Shown here piece after piece: positions 5,890 through 21,164 of a stretch of 64,000 bases of DNA. The DNA comes from a virus. Position 1 is the stretch's first letter, and each line of letters begins with the position of its first letter. The translations under genes and the position numbers were made by a program. Below the pieces are notes generated by a model. That model did no database searches, was not told the origin of the DNA, and saw only the letters and a program-made list of their open reading frames with translations. The DNA lies in IMG/VR virus record IMGVR_UViG_3300047558_000077, positions 108,365 through 172,364 of that record; one strand, 5' to 3'.

Positions 5890-6042
5890 ATGGCTAATGT
5901 GAAGACCTATAACCTTTCTATTCATCTGAAAGGTAATCGCACTCTCACTTTTCGTGGCATTTCTCGTGTAGCGGTTGAACGATATCGCAAGCACTATGAA
6001 ATCCAAATGGACTATATTTCCGCATCGGTGGAGAATCGTTAA
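5890..6042 (+). CDS. Small hypothetical protein (50 aa)
   Basis: MANVKTYNLSIHLKGNRTLTFRGISRVAVERYRKHYEIQMDYISASVENR; GGAG RBS; stop overlaps the rtcB ATG. Confidence 0.55.
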   Translation: MANVKTYNLSIHLKGNRTLTFRGISRVAVERYRKHYEIQMDYISASVENR

Positions 6043-7265
6043 TGTCTTATCAGTTCGTGCAAGGTCGTGGTGCGCCGCTCAAGATGTGGTGCGAAGGTGT
6101 TGAGGTCGAGGACGATGCTCGTACCCAGTTAGAGAACATAGCGTCCTTGCCGTTCGTGTATAAGCATGTGGCGGTGATGCCGGATGTTCACTTGGGTAAG
6201 GGTGCTACGGTTGGTTCGGTTATCGCTACCAAGGGTGCGGTAGTTCCGGCGGCTGTTGGTGTTGATATCGGTTGCGGTATGATGGCAGTTCGGTTGTCTC
6301 TAAAGGCAAACGACTTGCCGGACAATCTTGCTTCGCTTCGTTCTCATATCGAGTCCGTAGTGCCGCATGGTCGCACGGACAACGGCGGTAAGAACGACAA
6401 GGGAACGTGGCTTGACCGCATTCCGAACTCGGCTTCAAATGCTTGGTTGTCTTTGTGTAGCCGTTATGATGCTATAGTGGCAAAGCACCCGAAGATTGCG
6501 TCTCATAAGACTTTTGAGTTTATGGGCACTCTCGGCACGGGCAACCACTTTATCGAGTTGTGTCTGGACGAGGACGATTATGTGTGGGTAATGCTACACT
6601 CTGGTTCTCGTGGTGTAGGTAACAAGATCGGTCAGTATTTCATCGAGGCTGCTCGCAAGGAGATGGAGCGATATCATATCCTGCCGTATCTGCCGGATAA
6701 GGACTTGTCCTATTTGGTAGAGCATACCACGCTATTCGATGATTATGTTGAAGCAGTATCCTGGGCACAGGAGTTTGCTGCTCTCAACCGTCAGGTGATG
6801 ATGGATGCGGTGCTTGATGTTCTGCGTCAGCGTTTGCCGTCGTTTGTCGTGTCTGATGAAAAGGCTGTGAACTGCCACCACAACTATATCTCCAAGGAAA
6901 ACCACTTTGGAGAAAATGTGTTTGTGACCCGTAAGGGTGCGGTTCGTGCCCGTGAAGGCGATCTTGGTATCATACCGGGTTCTATGGGCACGGGTTCGTT
7001 TATCGTTCGTGGTCTTGGTAATCAGGAGTCGTTTTGTTCGTGTTCTCATGGTGCTGGTCGTCGTATGTCCCGCAATGCGGCTCGTAAGGCTATCACGCTA
7101 GATGATCATATCAAGGCGACCGAGGGTATTGAGTGCCGTAAGGACGTAGATGTGATTGACGAATCGCCGGCTGCTTACAAGGATATCGGTGCGGTCATGG
7201 CTGCACAGGATGACCTTGTTGAGATTGTCCACCGATTGCGTCAGGTTCTAAACGTAAAGGGATAA
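6042..7265 (+). CDS. rtcB: RtcB 3'-phosphate/5'-OH RNA ligase
   Basis: MPDVHLGKGATVG, GVDIGCG, GTLGTGNHFIE, HSGSRG, CHHN, SHGAGR, DESPAAYK motifs. Confidence 0.97.
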   Translation: MSYQFVQGRGAPLKMWCEGVEVEDDARTQLENIASLPFVYKHVAVMPDVHLGKGATVGSVIATKGAVVPAAVGVDIGCGMMAVRLSLKANDLPDNLASLRSHIESVVPHGRTDNGGKNDKGTWLDRIPNSASNAWLSLCSRYDAIVAKHPKIASHKTFEFMGTLGTGNHFIELCLDEDDYVWVMLHSGSRGVGNKIGQYFIEAARKEMERYHILPYLPDKDLSYLVEHTTLFDDYVEAVSWAQEFAALNRQVMMDAVLDVLRQRLPSFVVSDEKAVNCHHNYISKENHFGENVFVTRKGAVRAREGDLGIIPGSMGTGSFIVRGLGNQESFCSCSHGAGRRMSRNAARKAITLDDHIKATEGIECRKDVDVIDESPAAYKDIGAVMAAQDDLVEIVHRLRQVLNVKG

Positions 7266-7267
7266 AA

Positions 7268-7384
7268 ATGAAACGCAAGAATGTAAACCCAGTGGCTAAG
7301 GCGTTACGTCTTGGTGTATGTAAACCTAAGGTGATTGTAGACAGGAAAACTGTATACAATCGCAAAAGGCTACCAAAACTATAG
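7268..7384 (+). CDS. ArfA-like small basic peptide (38 aa)
   Basis: MKRKNVNPVAKALRLGVCKPKVIVDRKTVYNRKRLPKL; aligns by eye to the ArfA core N-x5-L-x5-[KR]-x-[KR]-V-x4-K...Y-x-RK; not in the ORF track. Confidence 0.6.
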   Translation: MKRKNVNPVAKALRLGVCKPKVIVDRKTVYNRKRLPKL

Positions 7385-16124: not shown

Positions 16125-17591
16125 ATGATTATCACTCGTAACTGGATACGTGACGACATACTCATATACACCGAGAAAGCCACTGGCGGTCTTCGTGTGT
16201 ATGGTAAGAAAGACATATGCGAGTTTATCAATTATTGGAAACTGAAACTACTATCACATAATGCAAAGCCTGGTGATAAATTAGGATTTACGTTTGAGAA
16301 CACCGAGATTCATTCTTATGCTCTTATGTTTGCAGCATTTGAACTTGGGTTACGTGTTGTGGTTTTACATCGACCAAGCACAGAGAAGGAATGTTTGGCA
16401 CCAAAAAGCAATGCTCATTTACCTCTAGACTTCTATGTCTATCTCACATCATACCTAAATCGTTCAACTACTGTCACGGGTGTCAATCATTATCGAAAGC
16501 ATTCTAAAGTTTGCATTAGCTATGGTCCTATGGAATGGACCGAGTTTAGTGAAGACTTTAGATCAAATGAAGAAACACCTATAACAGTCAAACCCGACGA
16601 TGTTGCTTTTTGTTGTAACAGTAGCGGTACAACCGGAGATCCTAAACTCATATCATACACACACGAGTTTCTTTACAACCTATGCACACATAACTGGCAA
16701 GACTTAGGTTATAAAGACGATGATACCATTGTGCATCTGTCTTCCCTAAATCACGGTGGAGTCATAACTTTACTATTACCGGCACTAAGAACTTGCAAGA
16801 CACACTTCTTTTATAACTACATCTTTGCAGCATCATATGATCGTCTTCTATCATTCATAGATGTTTGTCTAGATTATAATGTGTCAAAAATATTCTTTGC
16901 AAACGGTGGGGAGCTGAATACGCTCATTGATCACTTAATAGAAACCGATAATAAACTATCCAATGTTAGTGCCTACATTCTTTCGTTTATCAGTCCTAGA
17001 TGGTCAGATACTATTCGTGATCAAAGACTAAAGGAGATTGTTAGCGTTTTTGGTTGTAGTGAGATATGTGGTCCTGTCTTTATGCCTAGACTAGACAATA
17101 GCAATGTTGATGGCTTTGATCCAAAGTTACTAGGCAAGCCAATGACAGGCTTCTATGAAACAAAGATCATTAATAACAGAATACACACGAAACTAAAAGA
17201 CGGAGGAGAGTTTGTCTTTGATGATGTTGTAGAAGATAGAGTAGAAGGCGCTTATTTCATATCAAAGAATAGACTACAGAAGATCAATGATGTGGATATC
17301 AATCCACTGGACATTATAGAGATAGTAGAAAGATATGTATCACGGTATGAGTTTGAGTTATATGTGGACGAAATCTATAACGAGATATACATCATAACTT
17401 CCAATGCCAATCTTGATAGAGGGAAGATAAGACAAGACATATCTGCATTCTATCTGGACAAGATAACTCTAACCGATATCATATACGAAAAGGAACTATA
17501 TGATACTCGGATCACTCACAAAGCGGAAAGAGATAAACTATCACACATAGTTGAAAGATTCCGCTTGACATTTCAGAATAACTCTGTATAA
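16125..17591 (+). CDS. Adenylate-forming (AMP-binding, ANL superfamily) enzyme
   Basis: NSSGTTGDPK P-loop, LNHGG, FGCSE (YGxxE-like), C-terminal K. Confidence 0.75.
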   Translation: MIITRNWIRDDILIYTEKATGGLRVYGKKDICEFINYWKLKLLSHNAKPGDKLGFTFENTEIHSYALMFAAFELGLRVVVLHRPSTEKECLAPKSNAHLPLDFYVYLTSYLNRSTTVTGVNHYRKHSKVCISYGPMEWTEFSEDFRSNEETPITVKPDDVAFCCNSSGTTGDPKLISYTHEFLYNLCTHNWQDLGYKDDDTIVHLSSLNHGGVITLLLPALRTCKTHFFYNYIFAASYDRLLSFIDVCLDYNVSKIFFANGGELNTLIDHLIETDNKLSNVSAYILSFISPRWSDTIRDQRLKEIVSVFGCSEICGPVFMPRLDNSNVDGFDPKLLGKPMTGFYETKIINNRIHTKLKDGGEFVFDDVVEDRVEGAYFISKNRLQKINDVDINPLDIIEIVERYVSRYEFELYVDEIYNEIYIITSNANLDRGKIRQDISAFYLDKITLTDIIYEKELYDTRITHKAERDKLSHIVERFRLTFQNNSV

Positions 17592-17597
17592 TAAATA
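17565..17597 (+). promoter_or_regulatory. Promoter of the tmRNA gene (sigma70-like, with overlapping late-type TAAATA)
   Basis: TTGACA(17565)-16-TATAAT(17587); AATAAATA at 17590-17597. Confidence 0.7.
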
Positions 17598-17884
17598 CTA
17601 TGCCGAGGTCGTTGAGAGGAACGGCATAGACGTTTCGGACGGGAGTTCGACTCTCCCCACCTCCACCATAGGTACACATTTTGAGGTCTTGGTCGTTACC
17701 AGCATGGCAAAAACGGCGACAATGTGTATCTTTGATGGGGGTGTAACGGGTATCGACGGGCGTAGTAAGGGTTCAAGGAGACCAAAGGCAAATTGCAGGT
17801 GCAGCAAACGACAATGTACCATTTGATTACGCTCTAGCAGCATAATCATTGGGGTGGCGACTTCCCTAGAAACAGAAAAGTCGC
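17598..17884 (+). ncRNA. ssrA: Circularly permuted two-piece tmRNA; acceptor piece ~17598-17668, intervening segment 17669-17736, coding piece 17737-~17884
   Basis: T-arm GGGAG-TTCGACT-CTCCC, then CACCTCCA-CCA (ends 17668); 5' end GGGGGTG at 17737 pairs with it including the G3:U70 Ala determinant; D-loop-like GGGTATCGAC; tag ORF GCA AAC GAC AAT...GCA GCA TAA = ANDNVPFDYALAA (17804-17845); 3' hairpin GCGACTT/AAGTCGC. Confidence 0.93.
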
Positions 17885-17906
17885 ATTTTCAAAAAGGATC
17901 TATGTG

Positions 17907-18131
17907 ATGACACCGGATGATATTCAAAAGTTTAGTATGGAGATCGAGGAACTGGTCTATATGAAGGACATTCCTTATATTGATGCTGTTGTGGAATACT
18001 GTGAGATGACCGGGTTTGAAATAGAAACTGCGGCCAAATTAGTCTCCGGCGTTCTCAAATCTAAAATCAAACTCGAAGCAGAAAACCTCCACTACCTCAA
18101 AAAGTCAAACACCTCACAACTTCCTCTCTAA
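17907..18131 (+). CDS. gp33: Late transcription coactivator gp33
   Basis: FSMEIEELV...YIDAVVEYCE...LKSKIKLEAENL pattern; position before gp59. Confidence 0.9.
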   Translation: MTPDDIQKFSMEIEELVYMKDIPYIDAVVEYCEMTGFEIETAAKLVSGVLKSKIKLEAENLHYLKKSNTSQLPL

Positions 18132-18147
18132 AAGGAGAACCTATATT

Positions 18148-18996
18148 ATGTCTGAACCGCATACGATTACTAAATCGGTTTTTGACCGTGAAGAAACAAC
18201 ACACATCGCTAATGTCAAAGCAAAGTTGGAATCAGCACTATCTGGTGCTGGTGTATTTGACTGTATGCAACTCAAAGTCAGCGATGATGGAGATCGTGAA
18301 GCGATAACGCATAAACTTCAACCCGATCAGCGACACAATATTGTGATTGCCGGCGGTGTAATGGCTTCTCTTATCAGCAATGAGCATGTCAATGATATTG
18401 ATGTGTTTATACTCAATTCCAAAGAATCTTTGTTCAATTCTCTTATTCGCTTTAAAAGAGGTAAATGGAATGTTCGTTACCAACTGAATGAGGATGAAAA
18501 CTATTACAATCCTCATATCATCGCTACAGCAACAAACAAAGAATCAAAAGTTCAGTATATTCTAACGGACTTCACTAATCGACAAGATATACTAAAGGAC
18601 TTTGACTTTCTACATTGTACCTGTTCGTATCACAACGATCAGTTGTTTATCAGTCGGGAGACATATGATGCTATCGTCAAAAAGCATTTGATTTGTCAGA
18701 ACAAAAAGAAGAAGCCTAAAAAATGGCGTATAGATAAGTTTCTCGGTCGTGGTTGGTCGGATCACACTAATCCAGACTATAAACTTATCACCATTTTTGA
18801 CAAAGCAATTGAAAGGTCAATGGCCCAAAAGAGTGCGGCAATGCTTGAAAAATATGAGTGGCCAACCACCAGCATGGGCGCTGAATACAATGAAAAGGCA
18901 TGGAAAGAACTATTCGAGAAAGATAAAGAAAAGTGGAGAGTGAAGGAAGAATCTAGTCTTCCTGACTATTGGAAAAACATTGTAAGAGAATTATGA
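18148..18996 (+). CDS. Pol-beta-superfamily nucleotidyltransferase (CCA/poly(A) polymerase head-like)
   Basis: VIAGG...NDIDVF and DFDFLHC motifs; RIDKFLGRGW. Confidence 0.6.
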   Translation: MSEPHTITKSVFDREETTHIANVKAKLESALSGAGVFDCMQLKVSDDGDREAITHKLQPDQRHNIVIAGGVMASLISNEHVNDIDVFILNSKESLFNSLIRFKRGKWNVRYQLNEDENYYNPHIIATATNKESKVQYILTDFTNRQDILKDFDFLHCTCSYHNDQLFISRETYDAIVKKHLICQNKKKKPKKWRIDKFLGRGWSDHTNPDYKLITIFDKAIERSMAQKSAAMLEKYEWPTTSMGAEYNEKAWKELFEKDKEKWRVKEESSLPDYWKNIVREL

Positions 18997-19631
18997 AACA
19001 CTTTTCTGGATATGGAGCATATCTGTTATTCTTGGCCTTGAGGACACATTTCACCAAGGCCAAGTATGACTTCTTTGAAATGAACGGCAAACTCCGTGCT
19101 AACAAAGAGTCATATGAAAAACGCAGAGATAAAATGTTCTTTGTGAAGTTGGCTAAGACATACAATACAGAAGAACTAAAATACTTCTTTGTAGCCAACT
19201 TCCTAGACGACAGACATTACATAACCGACATGTTATCGGAGGAAGCACACGGAGCCTATTATGAATTTGAGAAACGAAGACAATCGCTATCCTATGTCTT
19301 CAAGAATGATATTGAAAAGTTATTTGAGAATGGGTGCCATTCTGCTTTCAAGTCTGATGATGGTGATTATCCTTTGCTTGTCGGCATGGTTCTCAGCCGA
19401 GATGTCTCTTTGGATTCTGCGGTTATTCTGAATGAGTTTGTTCCTTATGTGTCAAAATTTGATAAATATATGGACGACGATTGTATATGGCAAAAAGTAT
19501 CAAGTAAGATCAAAAAGTATAGACCATTTCTAAAGTATGAAAAAGATAAGATGAAGATCATACTGAAAGGTGTAATACATGAACAAAGAGAAAAGACAGA
19601 AGCGTTTTCAGCAAAAACAGCGACACATTGA
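18993..19631 (+). CDS. gp59: Helicase loader gp59
   Basis: YL.FLALRTHFT...YDFF..NGK...SYEKRRDK.FF.KL; KYRPFL. Confidence 0.92.
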   Translation: MKHFSGYGAYLLFLALRTHFTKAKYDFFEMNGKLRANKESYEKRRDKMFFVKLAKTYNTEELKYFFVANFLDDRHYITDMLSEEAHGAYYEFEKRRQSLSYVFKNDIEKLFENGCHSAFKSDDGDYPLLVGMVLSRDVSLDSAVILNEFVPYVSKFDKYMDDDCIWQKVSSKIKKYRPFLKYEKDKMKIILKGVIHEQREKTEAFSAKTATH

Positions 19632-20150: not shown

Positions 20151-20179
20151 TTGACAGGAGCTTCGGCTCCTGTTATAAT
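20151..20179 (+). promoter_or_regulatory. Consensus promoter for gp32 whose spacer is a UUCG hairpin
   Basis: TTGACA(20151)-GGAGCTTCGGCTCCTGT-TATAAT(20174). Confidence 0.8.
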
Positions 20180-20240: not shown

Positions 20241-21164
20241 ATGAACTTTGCAAACCTTAAGAAACAGTCAAAAGATTTCAGCAGCCTTCTCAAGAAGGTT
20301 GATGAACTCAATAAGCCCACCTACGATAGAGACGATTCCACAGACAACTATTGGAAGCCAACGCCCGATAAGGCTGGCAATGCTCTAGCTGTCATTCGCT
20401 TTCTTCCTGGTCCAGCCGTTGATGGCGACGATGCTCTACCATGGGTTCAGTATTGGGATCACGGTTTTCAGAACAAGACAACCGGTAAGTGGTATATTGA
20501 AAAGTCTCTGACTACACTCGGTCAGAAGGATCCTGTTTCTGAATATAACTCCACACTTTGGAACTCTAGCAGCGATGATAATTCGCCGGAGCGCAAGCAG
20601 GCCCGTGACCAGAAGCGTCGCCTGCATTACGTTTCTAACATCTATGTTGTGAGTGATCCTAAGAATCCTCAGAATGAAGGCAAGGTCTTTCTATTCAAGT
20701 ATGGTAAGAAAATCTTTGATAAGCTAACAAAGATGATGAACCCAGACCTTGAGTCCGAAGAAGCTATCAATCCATATGATCTATGGGCTGGTGCTAACTT
20801 CAAGTTGAAGATGGTCCGTCAGTCTGGCTTTCCAAACTATGACGAGTCAACATTCTTGGCTCCTGGTCCATTGTCAAAAGATGACGATGAACTAGAAAAG
20901 ATTTGGAAGAGTGAATATTCACTTGCTGAAATTACCGATCCGAAGAACTTTAAGACATACGATCAGTTGAAGGCACGTTTGGATGAAGTTCTCGGTCTTG
21001 GTGGTTCACCCGCTCGTGCGGCTAAGCCAACAATTGAAGATAGTGAAGAGGTTCCGTTTACGGACTCGAAGCCGGTCGCTAAGACCACAACTAAGGCTCC
21101 CGTTGTCGAAGACGAAGACGAAGACCTTAAGATGTTCCGTGAACTAGCTGATCTAGACGACTAA
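20241..21164 (+). CDS. gp32: Single-stranded DNA-binding protein gp32
   Basis: WKP..DKAGN..AVIRFLP, HGFQ, WYIEKSLTT, FKYGKKIFDK, NYDES; acidic tail. Confidence 0.97.
   Translation: MNFANLKKQSKDFSSLLKKVDELNKPTYDRDDSTDNYWKPTPDKAGNALAVIRFLPGPAVDGDDALPWVQYWDHGFQNKTTGKWYIEKSLTTLGQKDPVSEYNSTLWNSSSDDNSPERKQARDQKRRLHYVSNIYVVSDPKNPQNEGKVFLFKYGKKIFDKLTKMMNPDLESEEAINPYDLWAGANFKLKMVRQSGFPNYDESTFLAPGPLSKDDDELEKIWKSEYSLAEITDPKNFKTYDQLKARLDEVLGLGGSPARAAKPTIEDSEEVPFTDSKPVAKTTTKAPVVEDEDEDLKMFRELADLDD

Follow-up and report, generated by a model that had tools for sequence, protein, structure and literature searches.

A chromosomal two-piece tmRNA of Caulobacter was reportedly described by Keiler et al. in 2000, and two-piece tmRNA also occurs in marine cyanobacteria. 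A phage two-piece tmRNA upstream of gp33-gp59 has already been published: Buchholz et al. (2022) described alpha-type two-piece tmRNAs at this position in Melnitz, a Methylophilales/OM43 phage, and in pelagimyophages, annotated the Melnitz tmRNA after an early promoter, counted 53 two-piece tmRNAs in 18,146 phage genomes, and found a glutamine (glnA) riboswitch to be common 3' of such phage tmRNAs (PMC9004378). One-piece phage tmRNAs are known from the mycobacteriophage Bxz1 group and Bacillus phage G, with a TLD-only form in DS6A (PMC4131195), and a 2025 tmRNA database holds 79 phage sequences (PMC11915505). Like the element described here, those of the Bxz1 group, phage G and DS6A are phage-carried ssrA genes with a presumed use in lytic growth, but they have the standard order or are tagless, and they belong to other host phyla and other genomic contexts. 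We know of no phage smpB accompanying them.

The founding paper on freshwater pmoC phages makes no mention of tmRNA (PMC7674155). Here, we analysed a window of 64,000 nt, the whole stretch of DNA under study, from a pmoC-carrying, T4-like lake (freshwater) phage with a 172-kb genome that is complete according to CheckV. As phage two-piece tmRNA is established, its tmRNA adds a member and not a concept. What is new is a freshwater clade without room for PK1, with a helix, P2d, in PK1's place; the phage studied here also has a canonical T-loop and no glutamine riboswitch. The element, known from marine SAR11/OM43 phages, is thereby found in freshwater pmoC phages as well, whose hosts are probably methanotrophs.

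Identification of the Permuted tmRNA

ARAGORN called a permuted tmRNA at 17576-17936 with the tag AANDNVPFDYALAA. Two Rfam covariance models, tmRNA_permuted (RF04321; 95 bits, E 3.9e-17, cut-off 47) and alpha_tmRNA (RF01849; 56.2 bits, E 7.3e-13, cut-off 50), exceeded their gathering scores, and the beta_tmRNA model scored 59.9 bits, under its cut-off of 84. A first-pass annotation, made from the sequence alone, had proposed a permuted tmRNA here and had named ARAGORN and the Rfam alpha_tmRNA model as checks. Both were positive and, together with the covariation described below, they bear the proposal out; every coordinate that the annotation gave agrees with the sequence. A nucleotide search with the tmRNA region returned zero matches among deposited phages. 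Pairwise identities to the host and Melnitz tmRNAs were set aside, as they are inflated by free gaps. The features of the locus are as follows.

17565..17592, plus strand: early sigma70-type promoter (TTGACA 17565-17570, 16-nt spacer, TATAAT 17587-17592)
17590..17597, plus strand: late-promoter-type motif, T4-like (NATAAATA), here AATAAATA, overlapping the -10 box
17599..17668, plus strand: acceptor piece, ~70 nt, from the Rfam alignment and the pair counts, its 5' end inferred from the promoter
17601-17605 (P2d), 17607-17610 (P2c), 17619-17622 (P2b) and 17631-17637 (P2a), plus strand: 5' strands of helix P2
17637-17640, plus strand: GGAC element within the acceptor piece
17641-17657, plus strand: T-arm GGGAG/TTCGACT/CTCCC, read in the sequence
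17658-17664, plus strand: acceptor 3' strand CACCTCC, then the encoded ACCA (17665-17668)
17669..17736, plus strand: intervening segment, 68 nt, without an ORF, proposed to be removed on maturation
17737..17889, plus strand: coding piece, ~150 nt (acceptor strand, D-arm analogue with TCGAC, P2, linker, tag, pseudoknot)
17737-17743, plus strand: acceptor 5' strand GGGGGTG, forming a 7-bp stem in which G3:U70 is 17739:17662
17757-17762, 17771-17774, 17780-17783 and 17786-17790, plus strand: 3' strands of helix P2, then a 10-nt linker to the tag
17801..17845, plus strand: tag frame, resume codon GCA at 17801, 14 codons AANDNVPFDYALAA, stop TAA 17843-17845
17849..17884, plus strand: 3'-terminal H-type pseudoknot, S1 being TTGGGG (17849-17854) with CCCTAG (17864-17869)
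17857-17863 with 17878-17884, plus strand: pseudoknot S2, GCGACTT with AAGTCGC, compensated among relatives
17904..18131, plus strand: gp33-like late-transcription coactivator (phrog_254, E 4.6e-21)
between gp33 and gp59: 282-aa ORF with weak PHROG matches
18969-19631: gp59 (Pfam)
20241-21164: gp32 (phrog_224)

The T-arm, the 3' acceptor strand and the CCA, which ends at 17668, lie upstream of G1 (17737), so that the gene order is permuted. The division into an acceptor piece, a 68-nt intervening segment and a compact coding piece of ~150 nt reads as first claimed. The tRNA-Ala-like domain is complete (7-bp acceptor stem, G3:U70, discriminator A, CCA and T-arm), and its alanine identity pair, G3:U70, which had also been noticed earlier, is invariant in 9/9 relatives. 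The 3' end of the coding piece is a predicted one; relatives do not retain the U-run that follows 17884. A 57-nt G3:U70 mini-tRNA without an anticodon arm is present in the same phage genome.

The intervening segment folds on itself, as had been proposed, with a fold of -18.3 kcal/mol (z -1.95, which is modest). Its basal stem (GGTACACATT/AATGTGTATC, 10 bp, 17671-17680 with 17721-17730) extends the acceptor stem, and 6/10 of the basal-stem pairs changed on both sides among relatives. This stem is better supported by covariation than by folding energy. The length of the segment ranges from 44 to 126 nt within the clade, and a conserved leader, CTTTGAT, precedes G1 and places U at -1.

Conservation of the Helices and of the Tag Frame

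Pair counts were based on an alignment of nine related phage loci (alignment A1), in which 91.1% of the cells were paired and 17 pairs had changed on both sides, compared with 37-50% paired and 1-4 pairs changed on both sides in slid controls. The observed pairing was reached by 0/500 shuffles on four of five measures, and by 5/500 on the fifth. Changes on both sides were found in 4/5 pairs of the T-stem and in 4/4 pairs of P2b, which switched from GAAC:GUUC to ACGA:UCGU, and P2c switched from GGUC:GACC to GAUC:GAUC among relatives. The outer half of P2a aligned poorly and was left open in the analysis of P2. In P2d, the pair 17604:17787 was U:A in 19, C:G in 9, U:G in 1 and C:A in 1 of 30 distinct clade sequences, and each Watson-Crick type occurred in both P2b backgrounds. 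Taken together, these comparisons of related sequences show that the acceptor stem and a segmented helix P2 (P2a-d) join the two predicted pieces.

Pairing in trans between the pieces had been suggested in the first-pass annotation for three short motifs. Two of the pairings, GGUC:GACC and GAAC:GUUC, covary as parts of helix P2, and the third, UUGA:UCAA, is unused. The placement of GGTC/TTGA/GAAC in a loop did not hold. The hairpin in question (17598-17605/17622-17629), whose 5' nucleotides are also those used by P2d, is 8/8 paired in the source phage and 85.7% paired in nine sequences, but many of 24 distinct clade variants disrupt it. It was rejected as not conserved, and P2d was preferred. 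Thermodynamic folding of the cofolded pieces and of the precursor recovered the T-arm, the acceptor stem and the intervening hairpin; the P2 that it gave was not used, because it differs from the comparative P2 and is non-conserved. In the 3' pseudoknot, S2 is compensated in every subgroup (GCCACCA/TGGTGGC, GCCGGA/TCCGGC and TGGGCTC/GGGCCCA), and the loop holds GAAACAGAA, which is invariant in nine clade sequences.

The tag frame, read previously as (A)...ALAA-stop, was confirmed by ARAGORN. It opens with the Ala resume codon GCA, closes with ALAA-TAA, and comprises exactly 15 codons in all nine relatives, among which differences within subgroups are synonymous only. ANDN and ALAA are retained through GAC/GAT, AAC/AAT and GCA/GCG changes, and 11 clade contigs carry the tag AANDNVPF[DE][YF]ALAA. 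Either 17801 or 17804 had been considered as the resume codon. We assign it to 17801 and not to 17804, because 17801 retains the 15-codon frame common to the nine relatives and has A at position -4. An A at -4 from the resume codon is important in E. coli tmRNA.

The compensatory changes in the helices, the retained 15-codon tag frame and the synonymous-only differences within subgroups indicate a selected gene and no att-site remnant. We consider it highly probable, on this comparative evidence, that the element is a functional phage ssrA gene for an alpha-type circularly permuted two-piece tmRNA. Since tmRNA genes often serve as integration sites, and ssrA fragments are frequent in prophages (PMC9004378, PMC4131195), a non-functional leftover, namely an excised fragment of host ssrA, an attP site or an assembly chimera, was also weighed. 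This reading is extremely improbable and is already contradicted: the gene is complete, with both pieces, tag and promoter, in a T4-like, CheckV-complete genome in which no integrase was found; it is flanked by the same phage genes in contigs that are independent of one another, and it shows compensatory evolution; and the RNA is distant from the host gene, with 56 versus 305 bits on alpha_tmRNA.

Minimised Architecture

The distance from G1 to the resume codon is 64 nt in the source phage and 62-65 nt across the clade, whereas it is 84-85 nt in Methylocystis and, across 86 permuted tmRNAs, has a median of 85. Between P2c and the resume codon there are only 17 nt (17784-17800), 5 of which are used by P2d, and the positions of the PK1 hairpin are deleted or unpaired in the Rfam alignment. 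As judged from these lengths and alignments, the clade is without room for the pseudoknot PK1. At the place expected for PK1 there is P2d, a covarying helix of 4-5 bp formed by the 5' end of the acceptor piece and the linker upstream of the resume codon. By reading and by length, no helix 5 of the host type and no central stem-loops were found in the phage tmRNA. The earlier description of this RNA as minimised is thus justified by its short G1-to-resume distance and by the lack of room for PK1. The clade represents a naturally minimised tmRNA, consisting of the TLD, P2, a 10-nt linker, the tag and one pseudoknot, and it bears on which parts of tmRNA resuming translation requires.

For comparison, we used the sequences of Buchholz et al. 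2022 (GenBank MZ577095-MZ577098). Melnitz is, like the source phage, an aquatic T4-like myovirus with a permuted alpha-type tmRNA (106.7 bits on alpha_tmRNA). The two share the locus (PD-(D/E)XK nuclease, tmRNA, gp33 coactivator and gp59 loader), a TTGACA-N17-TATAAATA type promoter upstream, as read in the Melnitz sequence, and a 14-codon tag, ANDNYVPVDYALAA in Melnitz and AANDNVPFDYALAA here, both of which end in DYALAA. However, the G1-to-resume distance of Melnitz is 82 nt, where PK1 fits, and not 64 nt; its T-loop is GGCAGTA, whereas that of the source phage is the canonical TTCGACT; and its gene is followed by a glutamine riboswitch (RF01739, 52.8 bits), of which the source phage gave no match in 17300-18200 at E up to 10. 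Melnitz and the pelagimyophages are marine, with OM43 or SAR11 hosts, whereas the source phage is from freshwater, with Methylocystis as its probable host.

The tmRNA of Methylocystis (L215-L219) resembles that of the phage in its permuted order, GGAC, T-arm, G3:U70, encoded CCA, ANDN tag and a 3' pseudoknot of the same design, whose CAACAGAA loop shares ACAGAA. In contrast to the phage RNA, it scores 304.6 and not 56.2 bits on alpha_tmRNA. By reading, its acceptor piece carries a 5' hairpin, and PK1, a helix 5 surrounding the stop codon and additional stem-loops are present. The host coding piece is longer, at ~210 nt compared with ~150 nt, the host intervening segment is 27-52 nt compared with 68 nt, and the host tag is ANDNYAPVAVAA instead of AANDNVPFDYALAA.

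PK1 matters for tagging in E. coli. Because it is important there and near-general among tmRNAs, a PK1-less tmRNA might rescue poorly or differently. Compatibility with host factors is likewise an assumption, as the tag differs from that of the host and the T-loop is of the canonical and not the alpha type. With few exceptions, known tag-encoding tmRNAs have a well-supported PK1 (PMC1168896).

The conserved frame also bears on whether the RNA could be a decoy that titrates SmpB, i.e., a charged RNA that competes for SmpB and ribosomes and thereby damps host trans-translation. A decoy needs no frame, whereas here the frame length, the resume context, ANDN and ALAA-stop are conserved with synonymous-only differences within subgroups, and the linker and 3' pseudoknot flanking the frame are under structural selection as well. 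We therefore regard a decoy as unlikely, even though PK1 is absent from the phage tmRNA, the phage is without SmpB, and the 57-nt G3:U70 mini-tRNA without an anticodon arm is in the same genome. Also in line with a decoy, Hudson et al. (2014) reported that the DS6A sequence has little beyond the TLD, and that a molecule of this sort is a strong inhibitor of tmRNA, which may act through titration of SmpB (PMC4131195).

Promoters and Genomic Context

The TTGACA-16-TATAAT box matches 12/12 consensus positions, and the transcription start predicted from it is near 17599-17600. The window holds 4 TTGAC-N17-19-TATAAT sites versus 0.28 expected, all on the plus strand at 12.6-20.2 kb; exact TATAAATA shows no enrichment there (4 copies versus 4.67 expected). 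Across the nine-sequence alignment the TTGAC box does not vary, and in the wider clade TTGAC precedes the tmRNA in 23/48 members only. ATAAATA is invariant in the same alignment, and the late-type motif matched by AATAAATA is found upstream of 47/48 clade tmRNAs. It also precedes the tmRNAs of the distant L006, L026, L028 and L095, upstream of which no -35 box was seen by reading. ATAAATA is enriched in front of genes in the phage genome: 18/39 copies are intergenic, and 18 are located 0-80 nt upstream of a same-strand ORF. With a perfect sigma70 box and a late motif kept in nearly all clade members, the combination of sigma70-like and late-type promoters put forward in the first-pass annotation is plausible. 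A start from the late promoter near 17603 would cut off part of P2d.

In both the source phage and Melnitz, the tmRNA lies behind an early promoter and upstream of the gp33-gp59 module. A pattern search for the coding piece of the freshwater clade gave 55 contigs; in all, the piece is carried by no fewer than 56 viral contigs, which come from many metagenomes. In 34/56 of these contigs gp33 is downstream of the tmRNA, the same adjacency is seen in 14 other phage loci and in Melnitz, and the order AMP-binding ORF, tmRNA, gp33 is kept in all complete relatives. The probable start of gp33 in the source phage, by reading, is ATG 17907 after AAGGA, ~20 nt past the tmRNA. A 488-aa ORF upstream of the tmRNA had no phage-database match. 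The 282-aa ORF was considered as a CCA-adding-like nucleotidyltransferase and rejected, as its PHROG matches are weak and nothing was found in Pfam, NCBIfam or PDB; no link to tmRNA is claimed. RtcB and a 38-aa DUF7230 peptide are encoded in the same phage genome.

The recurrent adjacency to gp33, and the short distance to it, would fit a main role in cis, in which the tRNA-like precursor, placed in the leader of the gp33-gp59-gp32 mRNA, signals for the processing or the stability of that mRNA, with tagging secondary or lost. Moreover, the U-run past the last stem is not conserved, so read-through into gp33 is likely. However, the L123 group and L128 have an additional ~200-250 nt between tmRNA and gp33, the two genes are separated in Melnitz by a riboswitch and a small reverse-strand ORF, and a processing signal requires neither a conserved tag frame nor G3:U70. 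A main role in cis is thus very unlikely.

Proposed Mechanism

In the preferred reading, that of a tagging tmRNA, a single precursor would be transcribed from the early sigma70-type promoter, and probably also from the overlapping late-type NATAAATA promoter, and transcription may continue into gp33. The 68-nt intervening hairpin would be released by host enzymes: RNase P, cleaving on the 5' side of G17737, and nucleases that remove the nucleotides following the encoded CCA at 17668. The ~70-nt acceptor piece and the ~150-nt coding piece, held together by the 7-bp acceptor stem and P2a-d, would then be charged by host AlaRS through G3:U70 and brought by host SmpB to ribosomes that have stalled on broken mRNAs. 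There, translation would restart at GCA 17801 and append AANDNVPFDYALAA, an ANDN...LAA-type degron, and the ribosome would become available again. The phage would likely benefit from a ribosome pool that stays free, and from recycled amino acids, while it degrades host mRNA or while host defences cleave RNA.

That the window contains no smpB had been noted before, and no SmpB was found when the search was extended to the entire 172-kb genome. SmpB and permuted tmRNA are present in 5/5 Methylocystis genomes; judging by gene content, a Methylocystis host can supply the SmpB partner.

We put forward, as a tentative and rather doubtful proposal, that the natural tag-encoding tmRNA of this freshwater clade works without PK1 and, as read, without helix 5, with PK1 replaced by an intermolecular helix of 4-5 bp from the acceptor piece's 5' end, and that it is one arm of a phage ribosome-rescue/RNA-repair kit against phage- or defence-induced RNA cleavage. 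RtcB, the 38-aa DUF7230 peptide and the TLD-like mini-tRNA-Ala are candidates for other parts of such a kit.

Host and Lineage

The PmoC of the phage is 85-92% identical to Methylocystis/Methylocystaceae PmoC, and the host is probably a methane-oxidising Methylocystis. As this identity supports an alphaproteobacterial host independently of the tmRNA, and as clade relatives score 85-108 bits on the alpha_tmRNA model, the alphaproteobacterial host that had been predicted from the tmRNA type gains support. Melnitz, with its alpha-type tmRNA and yet an OM43 host, is a published caution (PMC9004378), owing to which tmRNA type alone is insufficient for a host call. Marine and freshwater phages share the locus upstream of gp33 and have similar tags, suggesting a phage lineage of ssrA that has persisted for long rather than repeated capture from hosts, which matters where tmRNA type serves to predict hosts. 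A cyanophage origin, considered because the closest similarity of the phage gp33 is to cyanophage gp33 and because two-piece tmRNA is present in marine cyanobacteria, was rejected in view of the alpha-type covariance model scores, the tag type and the Methylocystis-like pmoC.

The two-piece tmRNA gene and its relatives

Reading of the window from 17400 to 18050 found every tmRNA part where the first-pass annotation had placed it:

17641–17657, plus strand: T-arm, GGGAG-TTCGACT-CTCCC
17658–17664, plus strand: 3′ acceptor strand CACCTCC, followed by ACCA, with the last nucleotide at 17668
17669–17736, plus strand: intervening segment of 68 nt
17737–17743, plus strand: 5′ acceptor strand GGGGGTG, forming seven pairs with the 3′ strand, including G3:U70 (17739:17662)
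17801 (GCA) to 17843–17845 (TAA), plus strand: tag frame

ARAGORN called a single permuted tmRNA in the window, with the tag AANDNVPFDYALAA, and in covariance-model searches the Rfam models tmRNA_permuted (RF04321; 95 bits, cut-off 47) and alpha_tmRNA (RF01849; 56.2 bits, cut-off 50) both scored above their cut-offs, in line with that annotation. The beta_tmRNA model gave 59.9 bits under laxer filters, below its cut-off of 84.

Directly 5′ of the tmRNA lies an ORF for a 488-aa stand-alone AMP-binding (adenylate-forming) enzyme (window 16125–17591); tblastn against 50,697 deposited phage genomes gave no match. Used as a query, the ORF retrieved 12 related viral contigs, in which it is kept at this place with 49–59% amino-acid identity; the gene order ORF, tmRNA, gp33 is kept in every complete relative among them.

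Selection on structure and tag frame

Pairs were counted on an alignment of nine related phage loci (A1; ~71–79% nucleotide identity). In the comparative structure, 91.1% of cells were paired and 17 of 43 pairs were changed on both sides, as against 37–50% and 1–4 pairs in slid controls; on four of five measures, no shuffle out of 500 came up to the observed value, and on the fifth, five did. The T-stem occurs as GGGAG/CTCCC, GGCGG/CCGCC, CCGGG/CCCGG and GTGGG/CCCAC. Within helix P2, GAAC:GUUC of segment P2b is wholly replaced by ACGA:UCGU, and GGUC:GACC of P2c becomes GAUC:GAUC. Six pairs in the basal stem of the intervening segment are changed on both sides, and G3:U70 is invariant in all nine loci. 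In L123–L126, L131, L132 and L128, which are related contigs, ~200–250 nt of extra sequence lies between the tmRNA and gp33 (A1 columns ~390–626); this stretch, absent from our phage, looks coding, with an ATG after AAAGGA.

The stop codon is followed by an H-type pseudoknot:

17849–17854 with 17864–17869, plus strand: stem S1
17857–17863 with 17878–17884, plus strand: stem S2

S2 is fully compensated within each subgroup, and the loop, GAAACAGAA, does not vary among the nine loci aligned from the clade, the freshwater phage tmRNA group to which this phage belongs. The Methylocystis tmRNA has the same 3′ pseudoknot design, but its loop is CAACAGAA.

The tag frame is exactly 15 codons long in 9/9 loci, and all its differences within subgroups are synonymous (GAC/GAT, AAC/AAT, GCC/GCA). 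In E. coli, an A at position −4 from the resume codon is important. Because the 15-codon frame is conserved and an A stands at −4, we place the resume codon at 17801 and discard 17804, which had been proposed as its alternative. The conserved tag frame also makes it unlikely that the RNA is a decoy that titrates SmpB. That the locus acts in cis as a signal for processing of the gp33 mRNA is more improbable still, as this would leave the selection on the tag unexplained, though such a signal may coexist with tagging. Taken together, these results demonstrate that the phage locus is a complete tmRNA gene under structural and translational selection; an att-site remnant or a chimera is excluded. 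They confirm the earlier observation and, as far as sequence comparison goes, support its interpretation.

The helix segment P2d in the place of PK1

From G1, the first nucleotide of the 5′ acceptor strand, to the resume codon there are 64 nt in this phage (62–65 nt across the clade), in contrast to 84–85 nt in Methylocystis and 82 nt in the phage Melnitz; the median of the 86 permuted tmRNAs collected is 85 nt. Since the gap between P2c and the resume codon is only 17 nt, PK1, the pseudoknot between P2 and that codon, cannot form, and its positions are deleted in the Rfam alignment of the phage tmRNA. Of the 274 tmRNAs of Burks et al. 2005 (PMC1168896), most had good support for PK1 and few were exceptions. 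The Methylocystis tmRNA has a helix 5 around the stop codon, whereas none of this host type was found in the phage by reading; the central stem-loops of Methylocystis, judged on length alone, are missing as well.

The usual place of PK1 is occupied by P2d, in which UGCCG at the acceptor piece's 5′ end (17601–17605) pairs with the linker AGGCA (17786–17790), leaving 10 nt to the resume codon. A clade-specific sequence pattern retrieved 55 further viral contigs. Among 30 distinct clade sequences, the pair 17604:17787 was U:A in 19, C:G in nine, U:G in one and C:A in one, and both Watson–Crick types were found in each P2b background. The rival hairpin noted earlier (17598–17605/17622–17629) does pair perfectly in this phage, but it is broken in many relatives and was rejected.

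Comparison with known phage tmRNAs

A two-piece, alpha-type tmRNA was described in the OM43 phage Melnitz by Buchholz et al. 2022, who found one in 17 of 47 Melnitz-like contigs and counted 53 two-piece tmRNAs across 18,146 phage genomes (PMC9004378), and the 2025 tmRNA database holds 79 unique phage sequences (PMC11915505). Because such RNAs have been published and catalogued, the basic finding is already known in kind; a phage two-piece tmRNA is not itself new, and the novelty is modest. What appears to be new is the predicted design, which has P2d but no PK1, together with its setting in freshwater methanotroph phages and the variety of its T-loops. A pattern scan of IMG/VR found at least 72 permuted tmRNAs in at least 120 loci, at least 14 of them with gp33 downstream.

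The clade has T-arms of seven versions, with loops that range from the alpha-type GGCNGTN to the canonical TTCGANT (GGCAGTT, GGCGGTA, TGCGACT, TGCGATT, TTCAAAT, TTCGACT and TTCGATT in L222–L276 and L122–L133), and tags that include ANDNNAYEAFALAA, ANDNFASFDLALAA, ANDNVSPFEMALAA and AANDNVPFDFALAA. The contigs L122 and L128 are near-identical except for the entire T-arm, a pattern suggestive of recombinational T-arm swapping. Relatives with an alpha-type T-loop score 85–108 bits with alpha_tmRNA, and L122, with a canonical loop, scores 56; the canonical loop probably explains the similarly low score (56 bits) of this phage.

In the GenBank annotation of Melnitz, the tmRNA lies between a PDDEXK nuclease and gp33–gp59, the same place as here, but the glutamine riboswitch of Melnitz was not found in our phage. 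The Melnitz tag ANDNYVPVDYALAA (MZ577098.1, 45984–46436) and that of this phage, both of 14 codons, have VP[VF]DYALAA in common, even though Melnitz is a marine phage of OM43 and this phage comes from fresh water and probably infects Methylocystis. This likeness hints at a common phage lineage of ssrA.

Predicted promoters and likely read-through

The following promoter elements were found:

17565–17592, plus strand: promoter TTGACA-16-TATAAT, matching at 12/12 positions
17590–17597, plus strand: late-type element AATAAATA
12671, 15252, 17565 and 20151, plus strand: TTGAC-N17–19-TATAAT sites, among early and DNA-metabolism genes (12.6–20.2 kb)

These four sites in the window compare with 0.28 expected; the spacer of the one at 20151, just 5′ of gene 32, contains the GC-rich palindrome GGAGCTTCGGCTCC. 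ATAAATA does not vary among the nine loci of A1 and occurs upstream of 47/48 clade tmRNAs, whereas only 23/48 have a TTGAC −35 box. ATAAATA also precedes the distant PK1-less tmRNAs L006, L026, L028 and L095, at which no −35 box was seen by reading. In this genome, of which only ~10% is non-coding, ATAAATA has 39 copies, 18 of them intergenic; 18 are placed 0–80 nt 5′ of an ORF on the same strand, and several of these belong to the structural-gene region. An enriched, conserved ATAAATA together with a sigma70-type box makes early as well as late expression from these predicted promoters plausible, as the first-pass annotation had suggested. Read-through into gp33 is likely, since the relatives in A1 do not keep the run of U that follows the last stem.

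Phage genome, host and predicted action of the tmRNA

The window is the final 64 kb of a 172,364-bp IMG/VR record with a CheckV completeness of 100%. The phage is a T4-like myovirus, with gp33 directly 3′ of the tmRNA, followed by gp59 and gp32, and with PhoH, a PD-(D/E)XK exonuclease and a baseplate gp6 that is only ~37% identical to gp6 of Pelagibacter phage HTVC008M and cyanophages. ARAGORN found 24 tRNA genes. An integrase was not found in the phage genome, and neither was SmpB, extending to the genome what had been noted for the window. The proposed alphaproteobacterial host is independently supported by pmoC (G000:C1:61931–62704 on the whole record; L134:1480–2253), with 85–92% identity to Methylocystis/Methylocystaceae PmoC. 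Its top match (92%) is a 4.6-kb Lake Mendota scaffold, binned as Beijerinckiaceae, which may be phage DNA itself. As it carries a Methylocystis-like pmoC, the phage is a ‘pmoC-phage’ of Chen et al. 2020, the main text of which never mentions tmRNA (PMC7674155). SmpB and a permuted tmRNA, the latter with the tag ANDNYAPVAVAA, were both found in each of five Methylocystis genomes.

From established tmRNA biology, we infer that RNase P would cut 5′ of G17737, where a U is conserved at −1, that nucleases would trim the precursor back to the encoded CCA, and that the two pieces would assemble via the acceptor stem and P2. AlaRS would charge the phage tmRNA via G3:U70, and host SmpB and EF-Tu would bring it to stalled ribosomes, where translation would resume at 17801 and the tagged products would be degraded. 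The purpose may be to keep ribosomes free during host mRNA destruction or attack by defence nucleases.

Other candidate rescue or repair genes

A 57-nt tRNA-like gene (G000:C1 ~80734–80790), which was not called by ARAGORN, lies inside the tRNA array, ~27.6 kb before the window start. By reading, its acceptor stem, GGGCGAG/CTCGTCC, contains G3:U70; it also has a T-arm and ACCA, and one short hairpin replaces the D and anticodon arms; in sequence, it resembles a TLD-only tmRNA. The window also encodes an RtcB RNA ligase (6042–7384; Pfam E = 6e-128), immediately followed by a very basic 38-aa ORF that matched Pfam DUF7230 (E = 2.3e-7) and had no direct match to ArfA. Alongside the tmRNA, RtcB and this ORF may give the phage a second function in ribosome rescue or RNA repair.
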